A DNA stretch of 64,000 nt from Euglena gracilis (lineage: Eukaryota), in the NCBI GenBank assembly GCA_039621445.1, contig CP154954.1, positions 47,533,847 through 47,597,846 of the forward strand, read 5' to 3'. Shown here piece by piece: positions 914-61,183 of this stretch (the first letter of the stretch is position 1; each line of letters opens with the position of its first letter). The translations under genes and the position numbers were made by a program. Below the pieces are notes generated by a model. The model ran no database searches. It saw only the letters and a list, made by a program, of their open reading frames with translations, and had not been told where the DNA came from.

Positions 914-1550
914 AGCCAGAGCTCACAAGAGCACCCAAGAGCACACACAAGCACCCTATAGCACCCATCCGACCCCCCCCCCCCCCGGGGGTAGATGTTC
1001 CCCTGGGCTCCTGTCATGCTTGTGCTTACCGACCGGGGGGTGGGGGTGCCATAGGGTGCCTGCCTTTAGCAGGCACCCCCCCCCCCGGGGGGGGGTCCGG
1101 GGGGGGCGCAGAAAATTTTCATTGAAAATGGCCTTTTCCAGGCCCCCGGCGCCGAGGTCGGGGGGGGGGAGTACCTGGTATGGGCAGGCACCCCCAAGAA
1201 TCCTCCGAGGCGGGAGGATTTGAATTGGACACGGCAACCACGTGCCCATCCATTCCCAGGGTCGCGTGCACAGCCAAAAGGACGGGTAAAAGGAAGCGGA
1301 ATTGTTGAGGGTTTTCATTTTGACCCCCCGTGTTTGGGCAGTTCTCTGAAAAAGATGCGGGAGAAAATAATCTGGGAGAAAGTTGCAGCTTCAAGGACCT
1401 TTTCTCACCTCTTTTGAACAAATTCTGGGAGCCGGAGTTTTTTCAGGAGTCCCAATACCCGGTGATTTTGCAAAAAAAAATCCACCATTTGTCCACCGGA
1501 AATTTGTTTGGACCCCTCCTGCAAGCCATGGTCTGGTGGGCGCTGCGGGC
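914..1550 (+). other. Nonconventional (non-GT-AG) euglenid-type intron in psaD, 637 nt
   Basis: c|agcCAG ... CTGcgggc|a: Y|R at both junctions, CAG at +4..6, CTG at -8..-6, partly complementary ends. Removal gives NAR|SIGEN in frame. The exact register can slide because gcagc is repeated at both junctions. Confidence 0.85.
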
Positions 1551-22998: not shown

Positions 22999-23473
22999 GG
23001 CTGGGCACTCGAATTCATGCGTTCGTTCCATGACCACAAATTCCATGACCACACACTCGTTTGTTCCCTGGCGTTTTTGGCGAAGGGACAGGCAGGAGGC
23101 CTAGAGCTTTCCAGGTCCTTTGCCAAAAACCCTTTCCTCCGCACTTTGTTTGAAGACGCTCGATTTAGAGAGGCACGAAAACCCTGAGGACCGAGGAGAC
23201 ACCTCGGGCTCCGCACTTTGCCATTGTGAGGCCATGCCTTGCTCGCCGGCGGTTTGTTGTGTGATTGTTCGCTGCGCTGGGTTAGGAGGTCCCGCTTAGT
23301 GCCTTTTTTCGCCGGAGTTGGCTGATTCCTAAATTGCCCTTCGACACCCAGAAGAAAGGAAAAGAGTTCACGAACGAAGAAGAACCGAGAAAAGAAGTCA
23401 ATATCAATTCAATATCCAGAAGGACACGAACCAGACGAATATCAAATCAAAAGTCAATTATCAAATTTCAAAT

Positions 23474-26400
23474 TTGACTTCAATGAACAATGCAGTTGAG
23501 AAGAAATTGGAATTTCACGGCCGCGGACGTCCTGGAGCAGATGCCGCAGCAGCTGGAGAACTTGGAGATGCGGTCATCACGTGGCAAACCGTGGCCGTTC
23601 TTCCCACCCAGCCCCCCACCCCAGAAATTTCCCAGCCCAAAACCCCCCCCAGTGACGGCCACGGTCCTTGGACCACAGTGGCCAGAAGGCCCAGAAGACA
23701 GAAGCCAGCACCAGCCCTTTCTGGGCAAAGAATGGGCCATGGGGGCCCAAAATGCTTCAAATGCAAAATGCTTGGCCAATCAAAGCCCACACATCAGGGG
23801 CATCTCCCCCAAAGGCGCCCAGCAGCCTGGGCACAAATTGGCCAGAAGATGGGGAGATGGAATCAAGGCCAAGGAGGTCAACACCACAGGGGCCATGGGG
23901 GCCAGTTTTTCAAGCAAATCCCCTCAGGAAGGGGCAGAAAAGGTCTGTCCAACCCCCCCAATTCATCTATCACAACAGCCCCTCTCAAGGGGACAAGGGG
24001 GGGCCACAGCAGCCCCCCCAGATTTCCAATGGGGTTGGAGGCCAAGAAGAAATCAAGGCCTGGAAGACCACAAGATGGATTATGGAAAAAAATTTATACA
24101 TGGAAACCTTGGAGACCAGCAGGGTGGACCCACAGTGGCCACCAAGAAGCTAAAGCACCAGCAGGGTGGACCCACAGTGGCCACCAAGAAGCTAAGGCAG
24201 CTGCTGGAGAAATCCCCCGAGGGACCCACAGAGGCCCTCTGCCAAAAATGGGGGAAAAAGGGACCCACAGTGGCCCTTTCATTGACCCAGCCCCAGGAGG
24301 AAAAGGGACCCACAGTGGCCCTTATGGAGGGAGGGGCAGGAACCCCTCCAACAATTATTCCTCAATCCCCAATGATTCAATCAAGGGGGGGACCCACAGA
24401 GGCCCCCCTATGGTATGTGAACCAACCACATCAACCTGGAGAAGACCAGATAGGCAAAACAGGGGCATTAAGCCCTATGGTATGTCTTCCAACAACAAGA
24501 TCATCCAGAGAGTTGAGCAGAGAGGGAGAGAGTGCATGCACATCCCCCCAGAAAAAATTTCTTTTTCCAAGGGCCCAAGCCCTAGGGGACCTAGGGGTGC
24601 AATGTCCAACACCCCCAACCCAGCCCCCCCAGAATCATCTTATCCAGAAAATAAATTCAATGGGGGAAAGAGGGGGAGACACCCCCCTCCATCAAAGGTT
24701 GCAAAAAAGCCTAAAATGTCCAACACCCCCAGCCCAGCCCCCCCAAAATCATCTGATCCAAGAAATAAATTCCATGGAGGAGAAATGGGGAGACACCCCC
24801 CTCCATCAAAGGCTGCAAAACAGCCTAAAATGGTGGACAAAAAATGCCCCCCCAACAACATGTCAACTCATCAGGGATGGCATTCAACCCCCCTGGGTCA
24901 GCCCACCAAAATTGTCCACCCACCCAAAACCCAGAGCCAACCTGGACCTGAACCAGGCAGAAAAAATACTGTTGGATTACGAAAAAACTGGGTCAATAAA
25001 CGAGTTTGGGATTCAGAAACCCAGCATTTAATCCCATGGTTTCTAATTTCGAAACCAGAAGGGGAAACAACCAAATGGAGAATGATCAGCGACTGCAGAG
25101 AATTAAATCAGCAGTTTCAAGTGAAACCTTTCAAGCTGGATCACATCCAGCACATTTTTCCAGTTTTGGAAAAGGGCCACTGGGCAGCCAAAATAGACCT
25201 GAAAGATGCCTATTTTCATATTCCAGTAAGTCCAGGCCTAAGGCCATTTTTAAGGCATCAGGTGGGGGGGCAGACCTGGGAATTCCAGGCAGGCTGTTTT
25301 GGCCTGAATGTAATGCCCCAAATTTTCATGTCAGTCATGAAAACATTCGAAAAGCTGTGGAGGAAAAGGGGCATCCAGGTATTTATTTACCTGGACGACA
25401 TTTTGCTGGTGGCCCCAACACAAATCATCTTACAAAATCACCTGAACACAGTGGTCAGGGATTTAATCAAATCTGGGTTCAAAATCAATGTAAAAAAGTC
25501 CACCCTGCAGCCCACCCAAATCGTAAATCATCTTGGATTTCAACTAAACTTTCCAAGAGGGAAAATTACAGGTGCCCCCCCAGAAAATAAAAACAGTAAA
25601 AAAGGAGCTGGGAAAAATGGTGAAAAAAGATTACATGTCAAAAAGGCAATTGGCTGCCATTTTGGGCCAAATCAGATGCAATCTCATGGCCCTGCCCTTT
25701 CTAAGGGCCTTTACGGATGCCCTGGCAAATTTTTTAGTGGAAAATTCCACAGCCCCCTGGGACTCAAAACACCCCATCTCCCAAAGAATAAAGGACCAAT
25801 TAAGAGAAATAAAAAACCTGCTGGACACCTGGGGGGGCAGACCCTTCCCCCAAGGTGCAACCAGAGAGTTGCACTCAGACAGCAGCACCCATGCCTGGGG
25901 GGGGCTGGACATTCGAACAGGAAAAACTGTGCAAGAATTTTGGAGGGAAAACTCCATTCTGCACATAAATGTCAAAGAATTAAGTGCAGCAATAAGCACA
26001 GTTCAAAGCCTAAGCAAACCAGGAGAAACTGTGTCCCTATCCGTGGACAATCAAGTAATTTACTATTACTTAACAAAAGGGGGGGGCAGAAAAGACCCCT
26101 TCAATTCCATGCTAAGACCCTTCTTCAAATGGTGCATGGAACACAACATAAACCTGCAAGTAAAGTGGGTCCCCTCAAAAGAATGCCTGGCAGACCCCAT
26201 AAGCAGGTGGGAAATGGACAGGGGGGATTATTCCCTAGACCCCCAACTTTTTCAATGGCTGAGGCAGCAGTTCAAAAATTACATAAGCCTGAAAACAGAC
26301 CTTTTTGCCTCACCAGGCAACAAAAAACTGCCACAATTTGTGGCCAGGTGGCCCCACTGGGAAGCCACAGCAGTGGATGCATTGCAATGTCCACTGGACA

Positions 26401-27848
26401 ACATGGGGGGCCTTTATGCAAATCCCCCCTGGTCTTTAATTCAAAAATTTCTCCCCAGATTAAGAAGGTTTCCACAAGCCAAAGTTTTGATGGTCACCCC
26501 CTACTGGGATTCAGCCACATGGTGGCCCCAGTTAATAAAAATGAAAGTACCAGGGTCCCCCTGCCTGAAAATCACCCCTTACAAGGGTATGTTCACCAAT
26601 TGCAGGGGGGAAGAAATGCCACCCCCCAGGTGGCCCCTACTTTGCATGGTTTGCTCAGGCAAATTCTGGAGGGGAAACAAATACAAAATACATCCATTAG
26701 CGATTTCCTGGGAAGAAACCCCAGCTTAAAGCGTTATCAAAGCGCTTTTACGCTTTTATGGGTGATTTTGGACAAAATGGGGGTACCCCCCCCTGAAGCC
26801 ACCACTGACCAAGTGGTTGACGCTTTAATTCAACTGTTTCAATTTTCAAAGGCCCAAGCACGCAATGCATACAGTGCTATGCTATTAATCCCTGGCTTTG
26901 GGGGCCTGAGGTTCCATACCATGTTAGCACCTTATAAAAGGCTTTGGAACCAAAACCTGGAGAAATATGGTGCATTCTGGGATCCCCTCCCAATCCTCCT
27001 GGGGCTGGCACAGTCCCCCCTGCCCTCTGATATTTGTACATTGCGTACACAACTCATTTTCTGTTCACGCATCCTCTGTTTATACAGAAGTTCAGATTTG
27101 GCACAGGTCCAAAGAACCACCAGTGTGTTGGGGGGGGCACCCTACATCAAAATTAAACGTAAAGGGCAAAAGCTCCATAAGTGGGAGAGAGTTGTCTCCA
27201 TTCCCCAGTGCCCCCAAATCAGCCCCTTTCATTTAATGATGGCTTATGTGGCAGCAACACGTTTCTTTATGAAACCTGGGGGCCCCCTGTTAATTACGTT
27301 AAAACCCCCCTACAAAGCCATTAAGGCAGATACCATTGCTTCTATCACCAAAGAATTTTTGACCAAACAGGGGGTACCCCCCAGGTTTGGGGACCCCACT
27401 CCACCAGAGGGGCAGGGGTTGGTTTACTCAAAAAATTGGGCCTTTCTGCCCAAGAAGTTTGTGAAATTGGTCAATGGAAGGGGGTGGAGGCTTTCACAGC
27501 CCACTACTTGGTGCCCAAGGTTCTTTGGAGAATGCCCTGGCCCCCCTTTTTTCAGTGCACAATCTGGCCTCACAATGGCAAAGTGCGGAGCCCGAGGTGT
27601 CTCGTACTCCCTCGAGGCAGACCGAGAAGGGAGGAAGGGACACCGAGGGCGAAGCACAAAGACATTGTGAGCCCGACCCCCCCACCCACATACGAAAATT
27701 TGTCTTCAAACGCCCTCGGTCAGAAGATGGGGGCCAGGGGGGGGCAGAGGGGGGGGGACCCCCCCAGGGGAAAAGACAGCGCCATGGTCGCCACGTCGGA
27801 GACAATGCAGCCAACTTCGGCGAGGCGGCACTAAGCGGGACCTCCTAA
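23474..27848 (+). CDS. DIRS D overlapping frame: gag-like N-terminus to C-terminal tyrosine recombinase
   Basis: DGHGPWTTVARR and CFKC..H near the start. YR motifs LYRSSD, HSTRGAG and AHY from ~26640. Further indels near 27380 and 27506. The frame continues through the ICR to a stop at 27848. Confidence 0.75.
23490..26729 (+). CDS. DIRS D pol frame: N-terminal extension, RT, RNase H, N6-adenine methylase (two compensating 1-nt indels)
   Basis: ORF 23490-25031, the RT portion of 23474-27670 and ORF 25572-26729 join after adding an A near 24998 and removing a T near 25552 (copy C has the uninterrupted versions). Motifs YLDD, HSDSS, HINVKEL, DLFAS, NPPW. Confidence 0.85.
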
Positions 27849-28117
27849 CCCAGCGCAGCGAACAATCACACAGCAAACCGCCGGCGAGCAAGGCATGGCC
27901 TCACAATGTCTTTGTGCTTCGCCCTCGGTGTCCCTTCCTCCCTTCTCGGTCTGCCTCGAGGGAGTACGAAAAGAGCCTCCCCGTTGTTTAAAACTTGCGG
28001 TCTTGAAGAAAAAAACAGGGGTACCCCTTGAAGGCAACCAAAGCTGCCGCAGCTCCCCCCCAGGTCCCCATTCGCGAGGCCGGGACAGTGCTCCCAGTGG
28101 TTTGGTTTTGGTATGCC

Positions 28118-33362: not shown

Positions 33363-33435
33363 CTGACCAACCCCGGGGGGGGGCAGGGGGTCTCGGAGCG
33401 CCGTGGAAGCCCCGGGCACGCAGGAAGGCACAAAA

Positions 33436-33675
33436 CCCCCCCCCCCCCCCCCCCAACAGAAGCGCGGGGCCGCTACAAGCGCAGGGTCCAAATAAAAGGG
33501 CACCCCCCGCCGTCGAAGGCGGCGGTCCACTGCAAGCACAACCCCCATTTTGATGGGATTTTTTAAAGCAAGTTAACAAAAATCGGGCGGGAAGGGTCCA
33601 AATAGAACCGCACCCCCCGCCGCCAGAGGTGGCAGTCCGCTGTAAATGCACCCGCGCTTTTATTAGGGGGGGTTT
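33436..33675. mobile_element. MITE-like element with poly-C/poly-G inverted ends
   Basis: Ends cccccaacagaagcgcggg and cccgcgcttttattagggggg. The internal unit recurs at 31725-31803. Confidence 0.6.
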
Positions 33676-34162
33676 ACCCCCAGCCCGGGGGGGGGGGGGG
33701 TTGTGCCTGCCTGGTCATGGATCTAAACGTGCCCAGAGTGGCCTCTTCTGGGCTTGCGGCGCCAGAAGCAAAACCAACTTCCTTGAGGACAAATTGGAAA
33801 ATATACACTTGAAAAAAGAGAAATTTGTCTCAACCGCCCCCAGAAAAAAGAAAAATCTTGGGGAAAATGCAAAAAACCCACAAACACTCTAGAAAACTGC
33901 AAATGAATCCTGGAACACACATGCACACACAAAATGCAGATGTGTTTCCTATGTAGACCCCAATTCCACTCCAAAGGCTTCATATGGCCAAGTATTCCCC
34001 CGGAGATGTTCAACTCAACACTTGAAAGGCAACATTGTGCAAATTGCACAAACAAAGAAACAACAGATCCATTCTTTCTATCCCAAGCGTGTGCGCACAC
34101 ACACACACACGCGCGCGCGCACGCACACACACACACAGCAGTCGCAGAGATAGGGAGTCCAC

Positions 34163-43593: not shown

Positions 43594-45156
43594 CTTGGCA
43601 GATTAAAGGAAGGTGGTGGGGGGTTTGCCTGGGTGCTGTGTTGAGGTCCTGGACAGGGCTGTACGGGAAAGCCTGGTGGGGGGGATGGGTTGACCCTCTC
43701 ACAAAGTTCGTTCGGCGCCAAAGGTGTCGAAGGAAAACTTTGACCTAAAGATTGGCGCCCCCGGAAATATGGGGAGGCCAGGTGGGGGGGGGGGCGGTCG
43801 GACCCCCCGCCAGCATGGGGGTGGGGGGGGGGGGGGGGGCGACCCCCCAACACCCATGGGGTTGCAGGGATTCCCATACAGCCATGGTCCCGACGTACAC
43901 CATATTGAAGCCTGTGAACTACCCATCAAAAAAAGGTTTCCACTCATTTTCCTGAATTCCCCCTCCTTCCTGAGTTTTGAGCCCCTCAAAATCTAAATGG
44001 CCCACAACTCCGGAATCCCGAGGAGTTGTGGAACTTGGTGCCTTGAATTGCCCATGAAAACAAGATGTCCAGATCAAAGCTAGCCATTTGGACACCCAGA
44101 AAAAGTTATTTTACGATCTTGCTACCAGCTCAGCCCCATTATGTTTGGGAAGACACAAATTCCATAAAAAATGCAGCTTTTTTGCAGAGTTGGCATCAAT
44201 GCAGCACACAGCCAACGTCACATTGGCGTCAATAAGGCAAAAAAAATCAGGGGACCTCGTAAAGACTTTTGTACCAGTGTGTTGTAAAGACTTATGCACC
44301 AGACCACCGCCGCCATAAGCAGCGGTCCGCTACAGTCTGGCAGGCTGTATTTTGGTCAGGTGCCGACCCCACCCCGAGGGGGGGGGGGGGCGGGGCGAGG
44401 TGGGTGCTTTGGACGCGATCACGCAGGTGGGTGCTTTGGAACCCACCTGCGTGATTCTTTTTGTCATTTTCTTCATGTTTTCTTGCCTTACTAATTGGGT
44501 GGGTGTGCTCTTGTAGTGGACTGGAGGGTTCGGCAGCAGAGGGTGCGTTTTATTTGGACCCTGTGCTTGTTGAGGCCAGACGTTCATTCTCCAATGCCAT
44601 GTGATGTACTTCTTGGGACCTCCCCTATGTTGGGGGGAACAAGTTTTTCCAAGCTTTATTTGTTTACAAAAAAATCCTTTTGTCCTAAAAATTCCTTTTC
44701 CAAAACACAAATTGGCAAAGTTTGCAACCCTTGAAAAAACCGATTGAACCTTTAAAACAAACATTTTTTGGACCGACAAAAGACTGAGAGCCACCAAGAC
44801 CAAAGAAAATGCTTATTGGGGGGGATGTAATGGACATTTACAATCATTCAACGACCACTGGCTTGTTGCAAAAAAGTACAAGGTCTCATGGTCAAACAAC
44901 TCATGCACTTACCATTTTCCAAACCGGATATTTTTCGATTCCAATCCTTGAATTTTGAAAAGCTTGTGCGAGTCTAGATTTTTGATGAGAGTCTCTCAAA
45001 GTGAAAATTGTTCACCTTCAACTCCATATAAAAAGCTTCATGGTTTGTGCTCTCGTTTGTCCACCAAAAAAGCATCTACATTTTCAATACAAATTAAAAT
45101 TGAATGGAAAAAAAGATACAAAATGAAGCCCCTGTGGAGGAAGCAGTCATCATCAC

Positions 45157-45840
45157 CAGAGGCTTCTCTTCGGCTGCACCGACATCAACGTCTGTAACTG
45201 GGAGTCTGCGAATAACAGGGCCGACGTCGGCCCCCAGCAGGTCCGCCCAGTACGGGTGGTTTACCGGCACGCGGTGGCGGAAGAAGAAGCCCCGCAGCAG
45301 CTGCTGCCGCCGCAGCGTCTCCTCCGGGAACGACGATGCCTTGCCGTACGTCATGCTGGCCGGGCTGTGGCGCGACATGCTGCGATATCGGTTGCTCACC
45401 ACTGCAGCGGTACGGTGGGGCAGCAGCGCCGTGACCGTCTTCCAGTCGATCGGTCCACTCTGCGATTCCACAGCACTGAGAATGGTCTGGTCCTCCTCCG
45501 CCGTGAACGCGTCGGGGCCAGGCTGCCACCCACGAGGGCACCCATATGGTATCCGTGCGCAGCCTGGGCGTAGCTGCAGAAGACCCGCCGGAAGATGTCA
45601 CCGACGAGGTGAGTAATACGTTTCTTCTTGCTGCACAGTGTCTGCGCCGTTGGCCACAGCTTGTCCAGGTCGAGCCAGCCCTCCTCCTGAAGGCAGTCGG
45701 CGATGCACCGGACGACGGCCTCGAGGTGGCCCTCCTCCGGGGTGGCGGGGGTGATGTAGGGGACGGGGGCCAAATATCGCAGTGACTGGGGCTGGGCCAG
45801 AGGGTACTCCACCGTTCCTCTTAGGTTCAGCCCATATTCC
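45157..45840 (-). CDS. Large exon with Myb/SANT-like domain, one apparent frameshift near 45540
   Basis: FTAEEDQTILSAVESQSGPIDWKTVTALLPHRTAAVVSNRY fits the Myb pattern [WF]T.EED..I.......W..[IV]A..LP.RT....NR[YW]. The GC3-rich upstream part is in a different frame. Confidence 0.75.
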
Positions 45841-45927
45841 CTGACAGGCCTTTCTGATCTTTGAACTGAATGCCGCCCAAAAACAAACGAGAGACTTAAA
45901 AAAACAACTGTATACCTATGGAAGGCC

Positions 45928-46927
45928 TAACCCCCCCAAAAAATAAGACCCGGGTCTTATTTTTGGGTCCTTTTCTGGAGACCTCCAGTCATATATTTTG
46001 GGGGAGTCTTATTTTTGGATTTTTTCTTGACCGACCCGGGCCCGAAAAAAATGTCATTTTTCAGGTTCCAAAAAGCATCAAATATTTTCCTTTGGCGCTG
46101 CGCCATGTGGTGTGAGTTGACATTTAGCATGTTTTTTTGCACCCCAAAGATCAGAAATTTTTTGAAATTTCATCATTTTTGTAATTTTTCAGGGAAAATC
46201 TTCGGCTCTTCGCGCCGTCAGGGGGGGTAGCCTCCAGCCACCCTTTGGGCAGGGTCCAAATTAAAAAAAAAACTCGTCGATGGTCGATGGAGGGGAGTCC
46301 GGGGCAAGAAAAAGGCTGCTGGCTGGACCCCCCTTCCTGGGGATGGGGTGCTCAAGTGACGCCCTGATTGGAGGACCTTTTTTGATTTTCTTTTGGGGTT
46401 GTCAAACTTAGAAGACCTGCTTTCCACGCAATTTCTCCTCAGCGGCAAAAAAAAAACTCACGTGGTTCTTGGTGGTGTGAAGAAACACAAACTCTGTGGA
46501 AACCCCATTTTTTCGATAGGGTGGATTCACTGAGGTTTTGCGATGGATTTGACCCCCTTTGAACGCAGGCGAGGGGAATCCCCAGCATGTGCACACAGTG
46601 CACATTTTTCGAGGGCGATTTTTCGATTTCCCAGTGAATTTTTAGGACAATTTTATGTGGAGGCCAATTTTGATATTGCAAAGCCATGTCCTGGGAAGTT
46701 GCCACTGAGGACTGTGCCTCATGGGTTGACATGAACATCAAAAGGACGGTCCGTTCCGTCTGGATCTGGGGGGACGTTCATCGGGTATGGGGTGCATTTT
46801 GTGTTTGCATTTTTGCTTCAAAGGTGACAAGCACGACAGTCCGGGGGGTCTTATTTTTGGGGGGTCTTATTTTTGGATTTCTGCTCGATCGGCCCAGGGT
46901 GGGGTCTTATTTTTGAGGGGGTTTACC
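45928..46927. mobile_element. MITE-like element with subterminal gtcttattttt repeats
   Basis: Inverted ends taacccccccaaaaataagaccc and gggtcttattttgagggggttta. TSD not clear. Confidence 0.6.
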
Positions 46928-47203
46928 GCAAGTTCCTACCACGCAATTATTCCCAGACATTCTGAGGGGTCACTTTCCACTTTAAAAAAAAGCCTATCCA
47001 GGTTCTCATATAAAAGCGTCGGTCAGGTTGTGCCATGCACATAAATTGCAGCCATAAATTGGTGGGATCCACCAGTCTGCTGAGGGGATTGGACCATCCA
47101 TTTTATGGTAAAACCGTCAAATTCCTCTTGTGTTCTCATTGGTCATGACAAAACCATCGATTTCTCATTTTCCCCGCAAAATCCTGGGAAGTCTGGGTCA
47201 TGC

Positions 47204-47371
47204 ATAGGATTAGGGTTTGGGTTCGGATTTGGCCCAAAACCAAACTGAGGACTGAACTTGGCCAAAATTTGGGCCTGATTTTGAACTTTGTTAGCCTGAA
47301 ATTAGGCACAACTGCCTAAATTCAGCCCAAAATTAGCGTCACCCTAAACCTATTCCAAACCCTGATCCTAT
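47204..47371. repeat. Foldback with telomere-like inverted ends
   Basis: ataggattagggtttgg pairs with ccaaaccctgatcctat at 16 of 17 positions. Confidence 0.6.
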
Positions 47372-50300
47372 CCCCAACCACCAACCCTGTGTGCTGTGTG
47401 GGCACCATGAATCCTTGGGTCATCTCCGGGTGGCGGGGCGTTGCCAGCCTGGGTGTGGATCTCAGGCCCACTTCGTTACCCAGGCGGGTCTCACTGCCCC
47501 CTCCACAACGAAGTGGGACCCCCCCCAGAGAGTCTCACCAGTTCATGGCTGCCGCTTAGGTGGCCTAACTTGCCTTAATGTTGGAAATGGCTGGGGCATT
47601 GCGCAAATGCACAACCTCCAAAAATTTTCCAATCTCCAATCCCGAGTTGTGATTTCCAGGAAAACCCATGTTGGTGTGCTGGATGCCCTCACAGCCTGGC
47701 ATGAAAGCAACAACTTAGAACTTTTCTGTCTGTGGGCATAGGTCTCCCAAGGTCCATTGTGCATGAACCTGACAGCGCTGGGCAATGAAATGAGTGGACT
47801 CCATTGAAAAGATTCTGTGTTTGCGCAACGGAGAACCTAAATTTTGAATTGCAAAAAATAGAAATATTGTGCATTTGCAAAATGTTTTTTAATTAGGTGT
47901 AACTCTGAATGTGGGTGATCATTGCCCAAAATCATTGCATTTGCGCAATAATAATAAGCACCTTCATACTTAAATTTGTTTTTGTTGTGTATCTGTGCAA
48001 TGGGTGTCAGACCTTTTTCTTTTTATCAACCCTGGGGCTACTCTTGTCTGTGTGGTGCAGACAGTTAAATATGAGCTCTGCATCACCCTCTGGGGGGGGG
48101 GGCTGAAAAACAAGCTCCACAGACAAGTCAGCGTGGGACGGAAGAATGGTTCCACCACCCATGGGGCACCCTCTGGGACAGGGGATGCCTTGTGGTATGG
48201 AGAGCCTGCCCATATGTTGTTCATCTGCACAACGGCCACGCGGATTTAGAATTTAAAAATTCCATGTCCATCGTGTATTTTTGCATTGAAACATTTAAAC
48301 TTTCGTTCTAAATCAACTTGCTTTCTTTTGAAAAAAAAAGTTTGCACCCTCCAAGGGTGGGTGCTGGGTATTTTTTTTTTAAGTTTGGACCCCCCGAGGA
48401 GGTTCAAATTTGGTCAGGTGGAGTGGGTCTCCTGCCGGGGGCGGGGTTTGCTTCTTTTTCGACGCGAAGCGCCAAAATTTTTTGGATCCCAATTTCCCCC
48501 CCCCCCCCCCCAAAACCACCCCCCCAAGGGGTCGGGGGTGGGTGGGTCAGTTCAGGTCTCCCCTGAGTCTTTAAAAAGAAACCCCTGGCAGGCCGGGGGT
48601 GGGGCATTTGCAACCCGGGGGGGGGGGTTGGGTTTTGGAATGGTTGCGCTGTACATGCACACCCGGGCATTGAAGGCACCGAGGGCCCGAAAATGGTCAT
48701 TTGGAAGAGAAAGGTGGCTTGGTTGGCAGGCACTGGGACCCAAAACCGATCCCGGGGGGGGGAATCTCACCTCACAACAAAATATATTATCTATTTTCTC
48801 ATTTTCTGTGCCGATTACACATATGTGCAACAGAAACACATATTTCAAAATGCAAATTAGCTTGGTCATTGGCAATTGCGCAACAATCACCAATTTTGGC
48901 ATCACTGTGGGCAGGAGAACGTTCCTGGAACCATCTCAACTCCAGAGCAGACAAAATTGAAACGCAGAACAGCCTTGCTTGGGACAGGCAAACACCACCC
49001 TGGTGTGTGTCTGGACCCGGGAGGGAGAAAGCTCTGGAGCTTCCACAAACGACCCCGAACGACCCTCGGGGAGGCTCTAGATGCGCCTTGAACGTTGTTT
49101 GAGGAAGCTCTATAACCTTCTCATATGTCGTCAGAGGTCTTTCGAGGAGGCTCTAGAGCCTCCTCCCACGTCCATGCATGCACGTATCACGAGACCCCCG
49201 GGGACATCAAATGGGGAGCGGAGGCAACAAAGCAACAGAAACGGAGGCAACAAAACGTTTTTGGTACACGACCTCCATGTGTCACGTGTCATTTCAAAAA
49301 CCCCTTTCACCCTTTTGCGTGCATGTTATGTTTGACCCTCCTAAAAAATTTTGGCTTGCATGTTGACCTAACACTATCTGTTCAAATAGCAAACGTCAGG
49401 AATACATGATACTGGAGTGGATGCTCTTAAAGGCAACAACCACCCCGCGCACTCCAGTGTTTCCATTCCAATACTTCCAAAAACACCTTGGATGGCCAAA
49501 GTGGCACTTAAGGATATCACCAAAGCATGCACCCCAGGCGGTCTCCGTGGGAATTCCCGGGACCTGGCGGTGTGCTTGAAACCACCAGCCGGAGCGACAT
49601 GCACACACCGCACGCACGCACGCACGCCGCGCCCGCTCACAGTAATAACACCCCCCCCCTTCTCTGCGCAATTGCGTGCGCCCGTTTTGACCCCCAATCG
49701 CACGCATTGAGGGTGAGTTCAGGCGCAAACTGAATGCGACTGACCCCTCCAGTGTGTCGCGTGCCTCGGCACTGGGGGCAACCCAGAACAAGCGGCGACA
49801 CTGAGAGAACCAACAGGGACACAGCACTGAGTTTGGTTGCAAGCGAAGAAAATATAAAGGGAACGGTGGCACACAACAACTAACTACCTGTGGGTAGTGG
49901 CAGAACAAGAATGAATCGACCACCGAAAAACTGTGGAACACACACCAGGTGACAAGAACCGAGCCCTCTCCGCCGCCCCTGTTCGAGGACCCCGAGCCAG
50001 AGGGAACACCACTACAGCACCAAACCACGCGCCTACACCTACGCGATGTACACCACTCCGTGCCGCACTTGCGTGATTAAGAGATGGATGAGGGACCCTG
50101 TGGCCCGGGATGAAAACGCAGAGAAAGAGGTGAGGAAAACACATTGTCGAAGCGCAATAGCCCATATTAAAAAAGAGAAATGAAAAAACACGCGGCTAAC
50201 ATGCAATCTGAGAATGAACAAGCAGTGGCATTATATGCCTACTCACCAAGCCACACACCAGGCTTGCAGAGAGGCCCCTGACACGAAACCGTAAACATCA

Positions 50301-53300
50301 ATGGAACCCAATGCTCAGCACAAATGTCGTATGCATGTCATGTGTGTTGGTTATCAGCTCTTCGTCTGCGTAGCCCCTATTTTGAAGCCCCTGCCAACAG
50401 ACACATACGCAGGGAGGCCAACACTGTCCCCAGGCGCAGCACCAGAGGAGGCAGGCCTTGACTCTGGCCATAGGTGAGAGGGGTCTTTGGTGGTCGGGTC
50501 GCGCGCATGTGCGCCAGATTGGGGATCTCTGAGGAGAGAATGACACATCTGAAACGTGCTGAACGAGGGGGGGGGTTGTTAAACCTCATTGAGCTGCACG
50601 GCGGCGAAAACATAATGCACCCTTGGTTCTGAAACACCCCCAAACCGCCCTAATTTATTGCGATGGCTGACAACTGGTACCACAGTCGGCAGGTCTGATT
50701 TTGGATCCCTGAAATAAACCCCCTCCACAGACCTGGTTTCTGGATTGCACGCAACATGAACACGAGTCGAAAATGGACTTGCCAAAAACAAGAGGGCATC
50801 CTGGACCCAAATTCAAAAAAAACGAGGCCTTGTCCATATAATTTCCTTTGGAAACACGCGTAACACTGCCAAAAAAAGGTCATCATTTCTGGAGTTTCTG
50901 GGGCGGCAGAGCAGCACCGTGCCCAACAAACACTGTGCCATGAAGCGAGGGTGATGGAGTCTCCATTCCTAAAACACGGACGCAGTTGTGCAGGCGGCCC
51001 ACCTCATGGGGCGCTGTAGACCTCTCACGCAGTCGCACTGAAGGTTTCCAAAGAGGGGCTGCAACAGGGTTTTGAAGGCGAGCCTGAAAACTACCCTCAG
51101 GTGCGCACGGTCCTGCGGACCAGTCGATACATCGCCTCCGGATACAAGCCCTGGGGTACCCCCTTCCAGACATCAACTTCCGTTCCCTTGAAAATCCTCC
51201 ACTGTTCTAAGACCAGAGGCATTGCCTTCTCCTCTGTTTCCCGGTGAAAGCAAACCCTCTGCCTAGTGCAAACAGCCATGCCATCTGGAGGTTCTTCTGC
51301 CTGAGACTGTCACATTGACAAGCTAAATGGGGGGCTCATTCATCACTTTCTAAACCCAACACCCTCCAGCCCAGGGGCACATCTGCGCGCGCCTCATGTA
51401 CCAGCGTTTTCCACTGGCGTTCAGCATCGGAGACGCTGCGGGACGACTTTAACACCCTTCCCACAAAGCACCGCAACCGTCGCCTCACCCTGGCCATGCT
51501 CACAGGGCTGGAGGCTGCACACCCTCTCCCTGTCAACAGCCCCAGATCGTGCGTAGATGCGCGCGCTTGTTGTGTTTAAACGGGTGCACCTGGTGCGTGG
51601 ATTGACTGGAGGGGCACACTCAGCTTACCCCACGTCAAACCACCGGTTGGGAGTGTCCTCATCTGTCTTACCAACTGTGGGCAGATGCAGGGTCTGTACC
51701 ACGGCAGGGATCACGCATCTCCTCCCGCCAGCATGCACACACGACGTCATCCAACGCATCGACACAACTCCAGCCCCACTACTGCACGCATGTCCAAAAT
51801 GGCCCTCAATGATCATCCGCACACCCTCTGCGGCGCCCAAAGCTCCCAACGCTCCAACCTAATGGCACCCTGCACAGCACACCCCACGCCTTGCACAGCT
51901 GCGGCATTTGGGGGGAGGGTTTATTTGAATGAGAAGCTTATCAGGATGTGATCAGCCTAACACGGGGAAAATGCACTACTATTAGCCTGTCGTAAAAATG
52001 CACAAAGGTATGCAAAAATGTGCAAAATCTGAACAGAGAGAGAGAGAGAGAGAGGGAGATAAAGCACAAAAATCACAAAAAAATGCAAAATCGCCCAAAA
52101 ATGCAAAAAAATAGAAAGAAGAAATCATATGGAAATACGAGGGAAGCTTCAAAAAAGGCCAAAAATTTCAAAGAAAAACGCAAAAAAAGCCCAAAATGGC
52201 CAAAAAAAATGTCAAAAATTGGGCAAATCACAAAAAAAGTGTGCCGAAAAGCACACAAAAAAGCACTGAAAAAAAACCGAAAACAAAACTGCCAAAAAGC
52301 AAAGAAAAACTTGTGCGAAAAATGCACGAAAAATGTGAAACACATTCCCCTGATTCGTGCTGAGCTCTTTGTTATCAAAAGCAACATGCCTCAGCCCGGC
52401 CTTGCCCGGCCAGGTCTGGAGGCCGGGCGGTCCAATGGCCCGGCCCGGCCTGGGCTTAATTTACGTCTCCAGGCATTTTGCTTGATTTTGCTTCTTTTCG
52501 AGATATTTGGGATTTTGCGGGTTTTCGAGCCTAAATATGGCCCAAAATGGGCCGAAAATTGGCCGTTCCTCAGGCCAGGTGGTGATTTGGAAACAAAAGT
52601 CACCACACAATGTGGAGCGTTCCCAGGGCTTTCTTTTAGGTCGCCGGACATTCCTTTTGATTCTGCGCCATTTTTAATAAACACTGGACAAATCGATTTT
52701 TGACCCAGAAATGGTGGAAAACGGTATAATAAAAAGCCCGTGAGGCTGTTTTGGGCCGTAAATTGGCCACATCTCGTGCTAGGTGGAGAGTTGCGGGAAA
52801 TCAAAATATCGTCAGATAAAGCCTTTTTAAGGGCTTCAATTAGACAACCGTTAGATAAAGCCTTTAATTCAGATTTCTGGACATTTTGTTTGGTTTTGCT
52901 TCATTTTTGAGATGTTTGGCATTCGCGATTTTCTGGTCCAAAAAAAAAAAATGGCCCGAAATGGGCCCGAAAATGGCCGTTTCTCAGGCCAAGCGGGGAG
53001 CTATGGGAAAATCAAAATACAGTTAGATAAAGCGGTCTAAAGGCTTTGTTTGATGTCACAAACATTTCCTTTCATTTTTGGCTTCTTTTCCAAGTTAGTT
53101 TGAAAGGGGTTTTTTTGCCCATTTTGGCTTAAATGGGCCGAAAAACGTGTCAAAAATCGAGGCTGTGGATTTGGGGCGTAACTTTTGCCAGCCGAAGATG
53201 CCGGGAAAGCCAGGTACCGCAAGCAAGCAAACATGATGTAACCTCCCATGTAATTTACGTAATATTGATGACGTGATAATTTTAGATGGAGCTCCCCTGG

Positions 53301-53954
53301 TCCAACTAGTTTGTTCGCCGGGGGCCTTCAGCCGACTGAATTTTATTGCATTTTCCTTGGTTCCCCAAGCCACCCTGGAGGGGCGGTGTGCCGGAGGGGT
53401 GGTTATTTGATTAGGGTTAAAATAGGTCAGGGAGGTCCTTAAGCATAAAAAGGTTCCCAGCACATTCAATGAAAAAACCACAGGAAAAATGGTCCATATT
53501 TTGGCAAAACGGGTCGACTTCGAGGGGAAAACATGATTTCTGGTATTCTTGGACCATCGCCCATCCATCCAAAATGTCAAAATGCGTTTTTTTCAACCTT
53601 TTCATATTTTTACTCCATTCGAGCCCTGGACCATCGACCGGCCCTTGGGCCCAAGGGCGATCCTAAAGCGGCGGTCCTTAAACAAAAAAAATCATCCAAA
53701 AGAATCACCCGTCCCTTGTGGACCGCCCTGGTTAGGGTTAAAGTCAGTGTTAAGAATGGGGTAAGGTCACGACCTTCTATTACGCTTCAGGACTAATTTA
53801 CAATGAAATTTCGGCCCGACTTCGGCCTCACTTTTGGCCTAAATACCAGCCATAATCTGAACATGTGTTGTCTTTTCCCTTAAACAGGAGTGGCAGGAGG
53901 TTCCAATCAAGACATTTTGTTTCTGCAGAAAGCACTGGTCGCGCTGTAGCTCAC

Positions 53955-54179
53955 CGTCCATCCAGCGGGCCCAGTACTGGCTGAAGAGGCCCAAGGCGAA
54001 TGCCCGGGAGCGTGCGGACGCCACAGGCTTCTGAACCTTCTTTCCGGCGACCCGCCGGGCGAAACATCTCTTGACAAGCTTCAGCTGCAGGCCTGGCAGT
54101 AATGAAAAGATTCTCTGCTCCGGCAGACCCCGCCGGTGCAGGTCGTAAAACACCTCAGACGTGCTGCCGAACACAGAGT
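53955..54179 (-). CDS. Exon of minus-strand gene (SVFGSTSEVFYDLHRRGLPEQRIF...QYWARWMD)
   Basis: GC3-rich frame continuous with the upstream exon once the MITE insertion is removed. Probable gtgagc donor. Confidence 0.7.
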
Positions 54180-54184
54180 CCGAC

Positions 54185-54293
54185 CATGCTTGTGCTTACC
54201 GACCGGGGGGGGGAGGTGGGTGCTATAGGGTGCCTGCCCCTAACACCCCCCCACCCCCTCGGTGGGGTAGGCACCCGACTAAGCACAAGCCTG
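54185..54293. mobile_element. 109-bp MITE with 8-bp TSD (hAT-like) between two in-frame coding blocks
   Basis: TIRs catgcttgtgctta and taagcacaagcctg, perfect TSD agtccgac (54177-54184, 54294-54301). The same family occurs at 1016-1065 and, inverted, at ~951-968. Confidence 0.9.
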
Positions 54294-54296
54294 AGT

Positions 54297-54509
54297 CCGA
54301 CCATCCCTGCAACACGTGAATTCTCTCGGTCGATGTCAGGTCCTTCGTCGCCTCGGCTTTCGCAGTGACTGGCTGTCCAACGTGCACGTTGGTGGCCGCC
54401 GCCGCCACCACCACCTGCAGCCGTGCCTCCCGGACGGTCTCGGCGGCCAGCAAGGGGCAGCAGAAGATGTCCATTTGTGAGGCGATCAGCTTTAGGTTTT
54501 GCAGGGCAC
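54297..54509 (-). CDS. Exon of minus-strand gene (ALQNLKLIASQMDIF...TERIHVLQGWS)
   Basis: cccacag acceptor and GC3-rich open frame. Confidence 0.7.
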
Positions 54510-57553: not shown

Positions 57554-60500
57554 CTTACACGGCCGGGAATGCACTTTTCTTTACGAGTCACAAAATTTAG
57601 GCAGTTTTATTGAAAATGCGCATCCGCGCATTTCCGAAGCGGAGTGCGCAGGTGCGCATTTTGGATGGCTTGTCTCTTCGAGACTGGGTGTGAACACCAC
57701 AAAAATGAGCTGATTGGATTTAACACGACCACAGGGACAACCCCTGTTTACTGGTTCAACTACATATCATGTTGTTTACAGCTGTTTCATGACGACTGTG
57801 GTACAGTGCGTGGCTGGACACACACTGGGCACACTCCACACGACATGTGGAACACGGGTGACGCAGGACAACCTGGATCTGGGTGTGCCACCTTGTGTTC
57901 ACAAATGCGTGCTGATGGCTCCTGGGGGCAGGGCCTGGCGAACCTGGGATGAGCATGGGAAGGAACTCTTTGCAGCCACAGAGACACAGCCCTCCCCAGA
58001 TCGAAACATTTGGGGTGTTACCGAGTATCAGGGCTGACGAATGTGCACCTGCGCATTTTTTGGAAACCTCAAAGAATGCGCAGGTGCGCATTTTTTTGGA
58101 ATGGACACAGGCTGTGGGAAGGGGGGGGATATGCACACGCGCATTGACTATGAAGGACACACTGGGTATGGCCTGTTGTTTGCCTGCCATGGATGCCAGC
58201 TGTGCACCGCTATGATGTGGTTTCGGGCTTGTAGAACATGGGTGTGTGGGGGGGATGAACCAACAGAATCACCCTGGGCAACCATGTCGCGGTACCAGAC
58301 CACACCCTGAAACATGGCACCTGCAGCAGCATGGAAAACCCTGGGCCTGGCGATGGCAGGTGCCAAGGCACAAATTCATGTCCTTCAGTGACAGGGGAAC
58401 TGCCCCCCTGCAGCTCAAGTCATTGAACAAATCAGAATGCGCACCTGCGCATTCGACTTGTGCCGCTGCAGTCCAGTGCCCAGCCCAGCCTACGCTGCTC
58501 TCATAAACGTGTGGAGCACGTCACAACGCACAGGCAACGGTCCCCCCACCCGGCGGAGGTGATGGGCAGGTTGCTGCCAGCGTTGTCCGACCCCACGCCC
58601 CAGAGCGTGCATGGCAGCACACAGCCAATGGCCGCACTGAACAACCTTACATTGGGCTGCAGTACACGGTGCCAGGAGCACTGTGCCCCACAATTAGGGT
58701 CAACGCAGGGGGTTGTGTCTGGTTCCACACACAGTGCTCACGGGGTTGGCACCCCGAGAGCGAAACACGCCTGTCACCACCTTCGGCATCATTCCCAAAA
58801 AACGGTCTGTAAACACAGAATTAATTCACAATCCAAATGGACTCAAAGAAGCGAACACCACTGGTTAGTCCTTGCCCAGTCCCTGCCCAAATTTTATCCA
58901 GGCCCTTGAGACCGTGAGACGGGCACAAACACACCACAACAAAAACTTGCCGATAAACCCAGAATTTTTTCCGTTCTGCTTTTTCTGTGTATTCCACTGT
59001 GTCGTACCAAGGGAAAATGGATGAGAAAAAGACTTCAGTGCCCGAGGAAATTCCTCAGTGACGGGCACCCTAATTCCCAACTGCAGTCAGCAGTCTTTCA
59101 TGGCATGAGTGAAAAGCTGGTGAATGCGTAGATGCGCAAGAAATCGTCCTGTGCCTTTCTTTGAATGACAGCCACACCGTCGAATATTCCCACTCCCAGG
59201 TGGGTATTCCACCACCCACGCCAACTCCCCCCCACCTGGCCTGGGTTTGAAACCACAAGGCTGAGGTGTGACCTCCCTGCGAGGATCGAATGGTGTCCGA
59301 GGACGAGGCAGCCCTGGAGCGAAGCACGGCAGAGGAGGACCACCACCTGTGGCCTTGCTGGCAACAAACGTCACCCACCACACAGAACCCTTATTTATCA
59401 TGAACTCAGAGTCGACGCTCCAACACTGCAAACTACACAACCCCTGGCAAAGGGACCAGGGAAAGCACATATGCACACACCTTCTCCACACACCCCATCC
59501 GCAATGGCTGCAGTCAAACATGGCACATCGGGGTGAATGCGCACATGTGCATTCCCATCTTGTGTCTCCCCTTAAAGCACCCTGGTGGGAGGTTGCTACG
59601 CAGGGCCATGTCAAACAACTCAGCACACAAGGTGGAGGCACAGCCCAGGAGACATACACCCTACTCTGGCGGGCATCCTCCTGTGCAATGAGATGCCTCT
59701 GAAATCGTTGACAAAAGCCAGTAGTGCACCATGGGGGTGGCCCTGCCACAATGCTGTGCTGGCACTGGGTTCAAGGGTGCGAGACACAGCTCCCCTCAAC
59801 ACAGAGAATGCGCACCTGCGCACTCCTCCTCATGAAATGCGCAGGTGCGCACTCTTGTGGTTGCCCAGCGCTGCTCCCCTCCTGCTCTCCTGCAGATAGA
59901 ATCACACAGCCAGCGAAGGAATGGCCTCAAGAGTGCGCACGTGCGCATCCTTGTGCCTCATGCAACCTCGGAGAGGAGCCATTTTATGTTGTTTGTGAGG
60001 CTGTTCTGGAGGGTGTGGTCTGTAGCAGAAAGGCTTGAGGCGGGGCTCCGCTCCGTAGCTTTAAAAACCAGTGACACACAGGAAAGGGGTGCAATCCATA
60101 CCCAGCACCCCATCCCAAACGTCACACCTAAACACAGGTGGTCCCACATGGTGATGTAACGTGGTGCCTATGAGAAGGCACATGAGGAGCGGACGGCATG
60201 CGCCACTGGAGGGATGCTGTGCCTGCATGTGTCACAGAGGGGTGCAGTGCACCGTGTGGAATGGCAAACAGCACGCAGCCTGAGGAGGGTAACGAGCCCT
60301 CCCCTCCAGACATGTTGTGTGGATTTAAATCCACCCTCCCCACCACTCTCTGAATACAGACCACACACACACACCAAACATTTGCTAGCGCCCCCTCGTG
60401 CCCTGCTTCCAGTACAGGGCACAGAACCTCCCCTCCACTTTAACCGTAGAGACCACAGTGCCCCCTTCCCACAACCACCCCTGGGAGCCATAATCACTGT

Positions 60501-60903
60501 CCAAAACTTCTGGAAAAGGCCGGGACGGAGAGGGGGGTGAATGCACACCTGCGCATTCACTGGGCACCACAAAACAAGGGGGACAGCGACAGGTACAACG
60601 CCTTCACTGGACGAGGATGCCGCCCCGAAAAACAGCGTTTCGTATCGCACCGGCTTCGCTTGACGAGGTGTTTCCCCCTGCCGGCGGAGGTCAAAAACAG
60701 GTCTCCCAAAAATGAAAAAAGTCGGATTCCTCAAAAAAAAAAATCCTCGGACGCCGGAAGTTGTGGCACACAGTCCCACTTGGTCACCTCGACTTGACGG
60801 GTCGGCCGCCCCGCCAAATGATGGCGACACACTTGGTCACAAAAGAATGCGCAGGTGCGCAAAAAACCACCAAAAATGAAAAATGCATTCCCGGCCGTCT
60901 AAG
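57554..60903. mobile_element. 3.35-kb non-autonomous TIR element with 5-bp TSD and dispersed 20-bp palindromes
   Basis: TIRs cttacacggccgggaatgcactt and aaatgcattcccggccgtctaag, TSD aaaca (57549-57553, 60904-60908). Confidence 0.8.
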
Positions 60904-61183
60904 AAACACCGCCTGCCCACCCACCCGCCCACCTGTCCGCCTGCCTGCCTGCGCACATGTGTGTACATGTGCTTTGGGGTCTCTATTTGGGGTCTCATTT
61001 TTTTCACAAATCTTTCGTTCCTTCAACCGCACACCACACACCAAATAATGCAGGGAACCCGGGTGTGACCTTTGGGCTTGGTGGGAAATCCCCCAGCTGA
61101 ACCCTCCAAACACACGCTTTCCCGTACCACGCCACCCGGGGGGGGGGGGAGGGTGAGTGAAGGGAGGGCCCTGGCCCCATCAC

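Follow-up and report, generated by a model that had tools for sequence, protein, structure and literature searches.

A MITE-like element splits a conserved exon motif in Euglena gracilis and resembles a nonconventional intron

We analyzed a 64,000-nt stretch of Euglena gracilis DNA (hereafter the window), in which a minus-strand gene, whose product has a conserved domain at its N terminus and a weakly Myb-like region, carries a short element within its first exon. Exon 1 (53941..54474, minus strand) was delimited by tblastn and alignments with P0001-P0005. It begins at the ATG at 54474, the equivalent of the methionine at which all homologues start, and comprises 139 codons without the 117 nt described below. 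Exon 2 (45570..45839, minus strand, 90 codons) was placed by tblastn with P0002 together with the sequence itself, and exon 3, also on the minus strand, extends at least over 45193..45513, where tblastn matches it at 42% identity (E 1e-18) to the part of P0002 that is Myb-like. All three exons are open, over 139, 90 and 107 codons. The Pfam model Myb_DNA-bind_6 scored 21.4 bits on P0002, below its cut-off of 22.9; Pfam searches of two exon pieces and the homologues gave nothing above cut-off, and a search of the ESM Atlas with P0002 gave no usable match (best score 0.84). P0006 was dropped as unrelated, since its similarity (E 8e-4) was limited to six short segments of a protein with a repetitive sequence. 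Exon boundaries at a GT donor (53954) and an AG acceptor (about 54509) were also rejected, since the homologues continue through GELQR and start at the ATG.

Euglenid nonconventional introns, whose junction model is that of Milanowski et al. (2014/2016), have a genetically defined code, 5'-N3CDG-/-CH'GN5-6|R (Nomura et al. 2025, PMC12501133). According to the literature they leave transcripts as circular RNA and make up 71.8% of E. agilis introns; published sets comprise 649,158 junctions for E. agilis and 28,337 introns for E. gracilis. A preliminary description of the window had invoked the euglenid splice geometry with CAG and CTG near the intron ends. This genome uses the N3-CAG...CTG-N5 code, and two introns of the same gene, both defined by homology, fit it perfectly. 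Intron 1 (45840..53940, minus strand, 8101 nt) reads GAC-CAG-TGCTTTCTG ... CAGAAAGGC-CTG-TCAGG, followed by exon G, with its junction set by homology at ...ELQR|EYGLNL.... Intron 2 (45514..45569, minus strand, 56 nt) reads GCC-CAG-GCTGC ... GCAGC-CTG-GCCCC, again followed by exon G. Its placement follows from the homologue junction FCSY|D.FT and from a shift of frame on passing from exon 2 to exon 3. In the predicted fold the two ends of this intron are base-paired.

The insert in exon 1 falls within a W-S-x-x-V-F motif, which runs without interruption in 6/6 homologues and has an invariant W (alignment A2, comprising P0001, P0002, P0007, P0003, P0004 and P0005). Removal of 117 nt brings this motif back, as expected from the earlier proposal that it would restore a coding block. 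The in-frame TAG noted previously (54225-54223) is one of two in-frame stops that are encountered when the minus strand is read through the insert. A near-identical copy, P0001, lacks the insert and is identical to the two flanks at 54/61 and 95/107 residues (about 89%). P0001 runs on into intron-1 sequence and is therefore derived from DNA or unspliced RNA. It diverges from our gene by about 11% in the exon (15/139 residues) and at 3/25 residues in the intron-1 read-through. We searched the protein collection for a transcript-derived product of the locus: among longer proteins the exon-1 piece found only P0001 (1/69 candidates), among near-length proteins it found none, and exon 3 found none among longer proteins (0/317 candidates). 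This lack is weak evidence either way.

The element itself occupies 54185..54293, is 109 bp long and non-coding, and reads CAGGCTTGTGCTTA ... TAAGCACAAGCATG on the sense (minus) strand. The repeat finder and the sequence both return terminal inverted repeats (TIRs) of 14 nt, paired at 13/14 positions (93%) and 81 nt apart: arm 1 (54185..54198, plus strand CATGCTTGTGCTTA) and arm 2 (54280..54293, plus strand TAAGCACAAGCCTG). They thus agree with the preliminary description of a MITE with TIRs and a target-site duplication between two coding blocks. The two copies of the duplication, AGTCCGAC at 54177..54184 and again at 54294..54301, are identical at 8/8 positions and directly abut the TIRs. 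The earlier account of a perfect 8-bp duplication stands insofar as the 8-nt parse AGTCCGAC is the one that yields symmetric ends, CA[T/G]GCTTGTGCTTA; the direct repeat is in fact 12 nt long and not only 8, with 54176-54187 identical to 54293-54304 at a spacing of 117. The additional 1+3 bases belong to the element, whose final G and initial CAT match the flanks. Element and one duplication together make 109 + 8 = 117 nt, or 39 codons.

How readily such an arrangement arises by chance was judged by requiring an inverted seed of 9 nt within 1500 nt, together with an 8-nt direct repeat next to it at any of 10 offsets. This criterion is weak by itself, because 13/100 Markov shuffles reached it at least once. 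The real window held five matches, of which one was this element, one fell in a family of palindromic repeats and three belonged to a tandem array. The element rises above chance through its 12-nt repeat, its 14-nt arms only 81 nt apart, the two copies that share its termini and its placement in a conserved motif. For a 12-nt repeat beside an inverted pair, our own arithmetic gives about 463 pairs x 10 offsets x 4^-12, or about 3e-4. None of the 11 other long inverted pairs in the window had an adjacent direct repeat of at least 4 nt, and one had a 3-nt match. Splicing aside, we are confident that the insertion and its anatomy are real.

The element has two relatives in the 64-kb window, both partial, each sharing one terminus with it, and with similarity that ends at the same points. 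One, at 1015..1093 (plus strand; blastn 82% over 83 nt, confirmed by alignment), comprises the left terminus with the arm 1 end and part of the interior. The other, at 44341..44390 (minus strand; blastn 78% over 50 nt, likewise aligned), has the opposite terminus, the ...AGCCTG of the arm 2 end; no partner end was found for it. The CATG end of the element also occurs in the copy at 1015-1093 and hence is not private to the insertion at 54185-54293, and the element family itself is therefore not tuned to the splicing code. Intron 2 resembles the element only in CAGGCT-type ends, and 144/500 shuffles scored as well. A scan of metagenomes with the TIR motif returned 3 loci, all of them chance matches in unrelated coding-looking DNA.

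These copies bear on whether the insert arrived as a transposon. It might instead be filler DNA captured during repair of a double-strand break, with the flanking repeat as the footprint of repair and no transposase involved. Such an origin has been proposed for the 8-nt junction repeat of a gapC intron (PMC4770533), and the repeat here, at 12 nt, is longer than a standard 8-bp duplication. However, the insert carries 14-nt TIRs, and both of its termini recur in partial copies within 64 kb with similarity stopping at the same end points, which is the signature of a mobile family. We regard capture of filler DNA as very improbable.

The insert can be removed in 13 equivalent registers of 117 nt, all of which (13/13) give the same product. 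We compared it with the nonconventional code in one of them, 54180..54296 (minus strand), which reads ACT-CAG...ATG-GTCGG before the exon resumes with A. None of the 13 has GT/GC-AG or AT-AC ends, in keeping with the earlier statement that no GT-AG pair lies at the ends of the insert. The 22 in-frame GT/GC-AG pairs nearby would all alter the conserved motif, which is not the pattern of a spliceosomal introner. On the sense strand (54296-54291), ACT precedes CAG and supplies N3 and the 5' C-D-G; the 12-nt repeat leaves a choice of register, and this makes the 3-nt spacer attainable. The sequence after CAG pairs with that before the 3' trinucleotide over 11 perfect bp in the predicted fold, and after the N5 spacer, GTCGG, the exon opens with a purine, A. 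The preliminary description had pointed out that 3 nt before CAG plus 5 nt after the 3' trinucleotide equal one 8-bp duplication, and the geometry is as it described. The one departure lies at -8 to -6, where the code calls for C-H'-G (CTG, CCG or CAG) complementary to the 5' trinucleotide and the insert has ATG (54187-54185). The T and G of this ATG pair with the A and C of CAG, leaving the A at -8 opposite G. CA at +4,+5 and TG at -7,-6, the most conserved positions among 74 introns (PMC3935182), are both present in the insert and paired in the predicted fold. That fold (54160-54320, minus strand) has a predicted energy of -89.9 kcal/mol (z -5.0), with equally stable structures in 0/200 shuffles, and the perfect 11-bp stem GCUUGUGCUUA/UAAGCACAAGC is present in both the minimum-energy and the centroid folds of the element region.

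From these features of the sequence we put forward, as the likeliest working model but at a probability that we would place slightly under even, that a non-autonomous transposon inserted into exon 1 and is cut out by the nonconventional machinery as a segment of precisely 117 nt, making the element a young, transposon-born intron. A short non-autonomous DNA transposon of a small repeat family would have inserted into exon 1 and produced the 8-bp duplication. Read along the sense strand, a nonconventional intron layout (N3, CAG, the TIR stem, the 3' trinucleotide, N5 and a purine as first exon base) would then be made up of three parts: the final 3 nt of the duplication copy upstream, the element itself, and the initial 5 nt of the copy downstream. 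The nonconventional machinery would excise the element plus one duplication (117 nt) from the pre-mRNA, and the conserved frame would be restored. Excision of this particular copy is something that we infer, as is its placement by transposition rather than by another process.

A plainer reading is that the insertion simply disables the gene. It would be retained in any transcript together with its two stops, the gene would be a fresh pseudogene or null allele, and the likeness to the intron layout would be incidental, stemming only from CAG-type ends and an 8-bp duplication. In a knock-in test intron, every single substitution inside CAG or CTG led to loss of function (PMC12501133), and the A at -8 breaks C-H'-G at a position where single substitutions abolished knock-in splicing. 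The junctions of the element also favor this reading. A pyrimidine stands at the last exon base in 49/55 published introns and at the last intron base likewise in 49/55, and downstream exon bases 2 and 3 are A in 43/55 and C in 30/55, respectively (PMC4770533). In the insert the last exon and last intron bases are both G, giving G|A versus the preferred pyrimidine|purine, and downstream exon bases 2 and 3 are C and T. Since the close, insert-free P0001 exists, a null allele could be tolerated, and the divergence from P0001 given above does not indicate, on small numbers, that the exon is the more constrained. A very recent, unspliced disabling insertion would likewise show a perfect duplication and intact exons. 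On the other hand, the remaining gene is intact across three exons, all other elements of the code are present, and the stem is far longer than the code requires. In addition, 38.8% of annotated natural nonconventional introns fall outside the strict code (PMC12501133), so natural deviations exist. We consider a disabling insertion a possibility to be taken seriously, at a likelihood of perhaps a third.

It is also conceivable that the insert is removed in a different register that has the full code, leaving an in-frame protein short of 9 or 4 residues. The 144-nt alternative (minus strand, TTG-CAG...CTG-TGTTC followed by exon G) is in frame and fits the trinucleotide and spacer rules, as the preliminary description had it; its coordinates were one base off there and should read 54312..54169. 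A 129-nt alternative (54296..54168, minus strand) reads ACT-CAG...CTG-TGTTCG|G, with a 6-nt spacer. Both combine C-A-G and C-T-G with allowed spacers, an exon purine and a length divisible by 3. However, these registers delete the invariant W and/or the conserved V-F. The 144-nt form would delete both the W and V-F and is therefore disfavored as a functional form. Pairing beside CAG and CTG is also poor in both registers, and the predicted fold has the TIR stem setting the register; for the 144-nt form, CAG and CUG are not paired with each other in that fold. In synthetic introns pairing was needed for splicing (PMC12501133). We consider removal in either of these registers unlikely.

With ends and a duplication that nearly coincide with the signal for excising Euglena-type introns, the element provides a tangible case in which to test the proposal, already in print, that such introns originated as mobile elements. 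It has intact TIRs, a perfect duplication and a conserved codon block around it, and it reproduces the splicing code but for one position. A MITE origin of nonconventional introns has already been published (PMC3935182), as a hypothesis from 2013, and CAG/CTG have been termed TIRs and the junction repeats TSD-like (PMC11282704); the available portions of the literature to 2025 describe both the origin and the removal mechanism of these introns as unknown. In those portions we found no element family named behind the MITE hypothesis, nor any explicit argument that 3 + 5 nt equal one 8-bp duplication or any link to hAT elements.

It stands to reason to ask what that sum would mean more widely. 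We suggest, as a tentative proposal that we hold to be a little less probable than precise excision of this copy, that a single 8-bp duplication, divided in two, accounts for the code's spacers (3 nt before CAG, 5 nt after CTG), and that nonconventional introns descend in bulk from hAT-like transposons with CAG...CTG ends. The excision machinery would then take out an element plus one duplication and leave no scar. The mirror-image junction rules, including C at intron +3 and at downstream exon base 3, would be one target preference seen twice, and the element at 54185-54293 would be an example caught in the act. The odd 3/5 spacing would gain a historical explanation, and the transposase family would offer a lead to the excision machinery. 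A window-wide test of the 5+3 register, using 284 of 297 CAG...CTG inverted pairs (13 were dropped as low-complexity or near an end), gave an average of about 2.2 matches per 8-mer, a chance-level value from a 64-kb sample in which the test has no power. The only pair matching at 8/8 positions, 27618-27953, is palindromic and lies within a longer inverted repeat.

The hAT-type label given to the element would be a provisional one, drawn from duplication length and short TIRs only. P-like elements are also among the superfamilies with 8-bp duplications, and the CATG end presumably recalls P-element ends. The element probably agrees only in part with the consensus motifs of hAT ends and targets. 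It may be a transposon of a superfamily other than hAT, mobilized by Merlin, P-like or other elements that make 8-bp duplications, and we give this a probability clearly short of even. Two Merlin families with 8-bp duplications have been described in E. gracilis (PMC8101967), and no hAT transposase was seen among the ten window ORFs scanned (nine of the 14 longest and one shorter, from 31 ORFs of at least 200 aa), in which Pfam found only RVT_1, a reverse transcriptase. Against a non-hAT assignment, TIRs of 5-27 bp with 8-bp duplications are structural hallmarks of hAT elements (PMC4316626).

Among known systems, hAT-derived MITEs are alike in being short and non-coding with an 8-bp duplication, and the 14-nt TIRs fall in their 5-27 bp range (PMC4316626). 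The Merlin elements of E. gracilis are likewise euglenid DNA transposons with 8-bp duplications. They differ in having TIRs of at least 24 bp with a conserved terminal GG and duplications of 8-9 bp (PMC8101967), whereas the element has 14-nt TIRs and CA...TG ends and falls outside that definition. With euglenid nonconventional introns the element shares the absence of GT-AG, the N3-CAG, the stem, the 5-nt spacer, the exon purine and a direct repeat at the junction, by virtue of which the intron is 'slidable'; it differs in its 3' trinucleotide, ATG and not CTG/CCG, its G|A junctions, its 12-nt direct repeat and its status as a predicted intron only. Intron 4 of gapC in E. agilis ACOI 323 is a similar case: it was newly gained within coding sequence, shows all nonconventional features and has a direct repeat of eight nucleotides at its junctions. 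Unlike our element it is known to be strain-specific, and its authors read it as a product of double-strand-break repair (PMC4770533). Finally, introners and MITE-derived spliceosomal introns (Micromonas, dinoflagellates, Fritillaria) are also transposons with TIRs and target-site duplications in exons, in which the element and part of the duplication supply their own removal signals and leave the mRNA unscarred (PMC11282704). The primary introner surveys are PMC9860276 and PMC12130899. Introners are removed by the spliceosome at GT/GC-AG or relaxed sites, whereas the element described here matches the non-spliceosomal-looking code of Euglena.

The element, a MITE-like segment of 109 bp at 54185-54293 (read on the plus strand), carries 14-nt inverted-repeat ends. 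The repeat finder returned terminal inverted repeats (TIRs), CATGCTTGTGCTTA / TAAGCACAAGCCTG, that are complementary at 13 of 14 positions with 81 nt between the arms, and a surrounding direct repeat with a spacing of 117, the first 12 nt of which are identical (54176-54187 and 54293-54304). Symmetric element ends result when the duplication is parsed as 8 bp, AGTCCGAC, with copies at 54177-54184 and 54294-54301. The remaining four identical bases belong to the element itself (its terminal G and initial CAT) and match the flanks by coincidence. The interior is self-complementary and rich in G/C runs, and the sense-strand RNA of 54160-54320 had a predicted fold of -89.9 kcal/mol (z = -5.0), with none of 200 shuffles as stable.

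In a deliberately loose chance control, an inverted 9-nt seed (partner no more than 1500 nt away) had to be accompanied by an 8-nt direct repeat next to it at one of ten offsets. Among 100 Markov shuffles of the window, 13 contained such a pattern one or more times, and therefore TIRs with an 8-nt repeat are not compelling by themselves. The real window gave five hits, of which only that of the element was clean. We place the element above chance because of its 12-nt repeat, its long and close arms, its recurring termini and its coding context. Each terminus recurs within the same 64 kb, with the similarity ending at the same end point: a partial copy at 1015-1093 has the CATGCTTGTGCTTACCGACC end and interior in common with the element (82% over 83 nt), and another, at 44341-44390 (78% over 50 nt), shares the ...AGCCTG end. 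A further, internal fragment lies at 948-980. Because the copy at 1015-1093 and the element have it in common, the CATG end would be a feature of the family and not a private mutation of the element. None of the 11 longest other inverted pairs in the window had an adjacent direct repeat of at least 4 nt, and a metagenome scan for the element TIR gave chance matches only.

Other inverted structures were also present. Foldback-like units lie at 27602-27969, 6393-6826 and 22646-22998. The three measure 350-430 nt and have related termini (CTCG.ACTCCC...) and arms of 68-74 nt that are 99%, 99% and 88% complementary, respectively; none of them has a flanking direct repeat. In 57640-60940, a near-palindromic unit based on ATGCGCAGGTGCGCAT and ~16-24 nt in length occurs many times and in either orientation (inverted pairs I13-I15 and I20), forming a family of short, dispersed palindromic repeats. 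Long G and C homopolymer runs occur across the whole window, whose AT skew is below zero from 1 to ~16 kb and above zero over the rest.

On the minus strand, the sequence flanking the insert is open in a single common frame, and read-through of the insert meets two in-frame stops. The homologue P0001, a Logan-derived protein of 169 aa, had 54 of 61 residues in common with one flank and 95 of 107 with the other, and nothing at the insertion point. When it was used in an exhaustive profile search, P0002-P0005 came up as four remoter relatives (E 7.5e-16 to 3.9e-9, 31-41% identity); a sixth hit, P0006, was dropped as a repetitive unrelated protein. In an alignment of six homologues (P0001-P0005 and P0007) the insertion site was uninterrupted in all six and the W-S-x-x-V-F block had an invariant W, and the start methionine of all homologues corresponds to the ATG at 54474. 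P0001 reads on into sequence that is intron 1 in the window, so it derives from DNA or unspliced RNA, and it probably represents an empty site for the insertion. The protein collection searched contained no transcript-derived product of the locus, which says little either way.

Excision of exactly 117 nt restores the W-S-x-x-V-F block. The 12-nt repeat permits 13 registers, which share one product and all lack GT/GC-AG and AT-AC ends; each of the 22 nearby in-frame GT/GC-AG pairs would change the conserved block. The preliminary description, made from the sequence alone, had proposed a TIR element with an 8-bp target-site duplication (TSD) between two coding-like blocks, an in-frame stop within it, no GT-AG pair at its ends and restoration of coding by removal of 117 nt, and all of this was borne out. 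From the TIRs, the 12-nt repeat, the family ends and the homologues, we are highly confident that the element is a real TIR/TSD insertion inside a conserved coding block.

Two further introns of the gene were located by homology. A tblastn search with P0002 placed exons 2 and 3 at 45839-45570 and 45513-45193 (minus). Intron 1 (8101 nt, minus) falls between ...ELQR and EYGLNL... and reads GAC-CAG-TGCTTTCTG ... CAGAAAGGC-CTG-TCAGG, then exon G, while intron 2 (56 nt, minus, with a frame change) falls between ...FCSY and D.FT... and reads GCC-CAG-GCTGC ... GCAGC-CTG-GCCCC, then exon G; both junctions are required by homology. Homology places the first junction between ELQR and EYGLNL, and a model of exon 1 that relied on 53954 as a conventional GT donor was therefore rejected. 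Nomura et al. define genetically a nonconventional code, 5'-N3CDG-/-CH'GN5-6 followed by R, the first exon base, with pairing beside the trinucleotides (PMC12501133), and introns 1 and 2 fit it fully. They also agree with the E. gracilis intron logos in PMC11170887 (CCAGG at +3..+7, CCTG at -9..-6), and we call the genome euglenid-type because of these two fits.

Between exons matching the host-gene family (45 kb and 31.5 kb) sits an uninterrupted frame of 1444 codons at 23336-27670 (plus), with Pfam RVT_1 at residues 572-737 (E 7e-22), which looks like an intact retroelement. P0005 and its cluster mates have a C-terminal motif, ...NWRPGG...EET..., that occurs twice, and the short segment 31428-31568 (minus) matches it at ~40-43% identity (E 1e-5). 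This segment is an exon of the host gene lying far downstream or else a second family member. A series of long open frames, the largest of 644 codons, occupies 7000-16500 (minus). The frame at 14527-15063 (minus) contains ...LKDAYFHIPL..., which we take to be a reverse-transcriptase-like motif; seven others in the series gave no Pfam match at E 0.001.

On the sense strand the element reads ACT-CAG-GCUUGUGCUUA ... UAAGCACAAGC-AUG-GUCGG, then exon A. It thus has the strict 3-nt 5' spacer, CAG, the 5-nt 3' spacer and the exon purine, and in the predicted fold an 11-bp perfect stem beside the trinucleotides agrees with the pairing rule; synthetic introns described in PMC12501133 carried a 12-bp stem and required pairing. 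The CA/UG at +4,+5 and -7,-6, the most conserved positions among 74 published introns (PMC3935182), are present and paired in that fold. At -8 there is an A where C is expected, and in the knock-in assay of PMC12501133 no variant carrying one substitution inside CAG or CTG remained functional. The junctions are G before and A after the cut, and exon bases 2 and 3 are C and T; of 55 published introns (PMC4770533), each junction has a pyrimidine ahead of its cut in 49, exon base 2 is A in 43 and base 3 is C in 30. The main rival reading, that the element is a fresh insertion disabling the gene, has a real prospect of being right, if a rather less than even one. Of annotated nonconventional introns, on the other side, 38.8% depart from the strict code (PMC12501133). 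Removal of the element as the predicted 117-nt nonconventional intron is plausible, at slightly below even chances. Two other in-frame registers, of 144 nt and 129 nt, satisfy the trinucleotide and spacer rules; both would delete conserved residues of the alignment and lack adjacent pairing in the predicted fold. The 144-nt alternative had been noticed in the preliminary description and does exist, but one base away, at 54312..54169 (minus).

The register check suggested there compares the last 5 exon nt plus first 3 intron nt with the last 5 intron nt plus first 3 exon nt. At window scale, 284 CAG...CTG inverted pairs averaged ~2.2/8 matches, which is the chance level, and the check has no power within 64 kb. 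Counted by eye, the element matched at 8/8, intron 2 at 5/8 (also computed) and intron 1 at 3/8. A 293-nt segment at 33421-33713 has 27-nt inverted ends, CAGG...CCTG, of the nonconventional-intron type, with no flanking duplication and 0/8 in this register.

The frame of the idea, MITE-born introns, is already published, because the MITE origin, the TIR- and TSD-like labels and 8-nt junction repeats are all in print. A MITE origin was proposed in 2013 (PMC3935182) and restated in papers of 2016, 2024 and 2025. In a 2024 review, CAG/CTG at +4..+6 and -8..-6 are given the label TIR, and the repeats at the junctions are described as TSD-like (PMC11282704). Also reported are direct repeats flanking 84.4% of E. 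agilis introns (PMC12501133) and eight-nucleotide junction repeats at a strain-specific, newly gained gapC intron, read by the authors as a double-strand-break repair footprint (PMC4770533). In the literature searches and main-text passages covered, we found no paper spelling out that N3 and N5 add up to one 8-bp duplication, no link to a transposon superfamily and no named repeat family coinciding with a nonconventional intron. The 3+5=8 argument refines the MITE-origin hypothesis in a sharp and checkable way, and the element locus is a new, unusually clean test case for it. By the published mirror-image rules, each of the two cuts falls between a pyrimidine and a purine, and intron +3 and exon +3 are both C (PMC11170887, PMC4770533, PMC3935182); we infer that the duplication model would explain them as one target preference seen twice.

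The label 'hAT-type' for the element is a guess. Short TIRs and 8-bp duplications are structural hallmarks of hAT (PMC4316626), and the element likewise has both. Merlin families with 8-bp duplications like that of the element are documented in E. gracilis, although the Merlin TIRs end in GG (PMC8101967).
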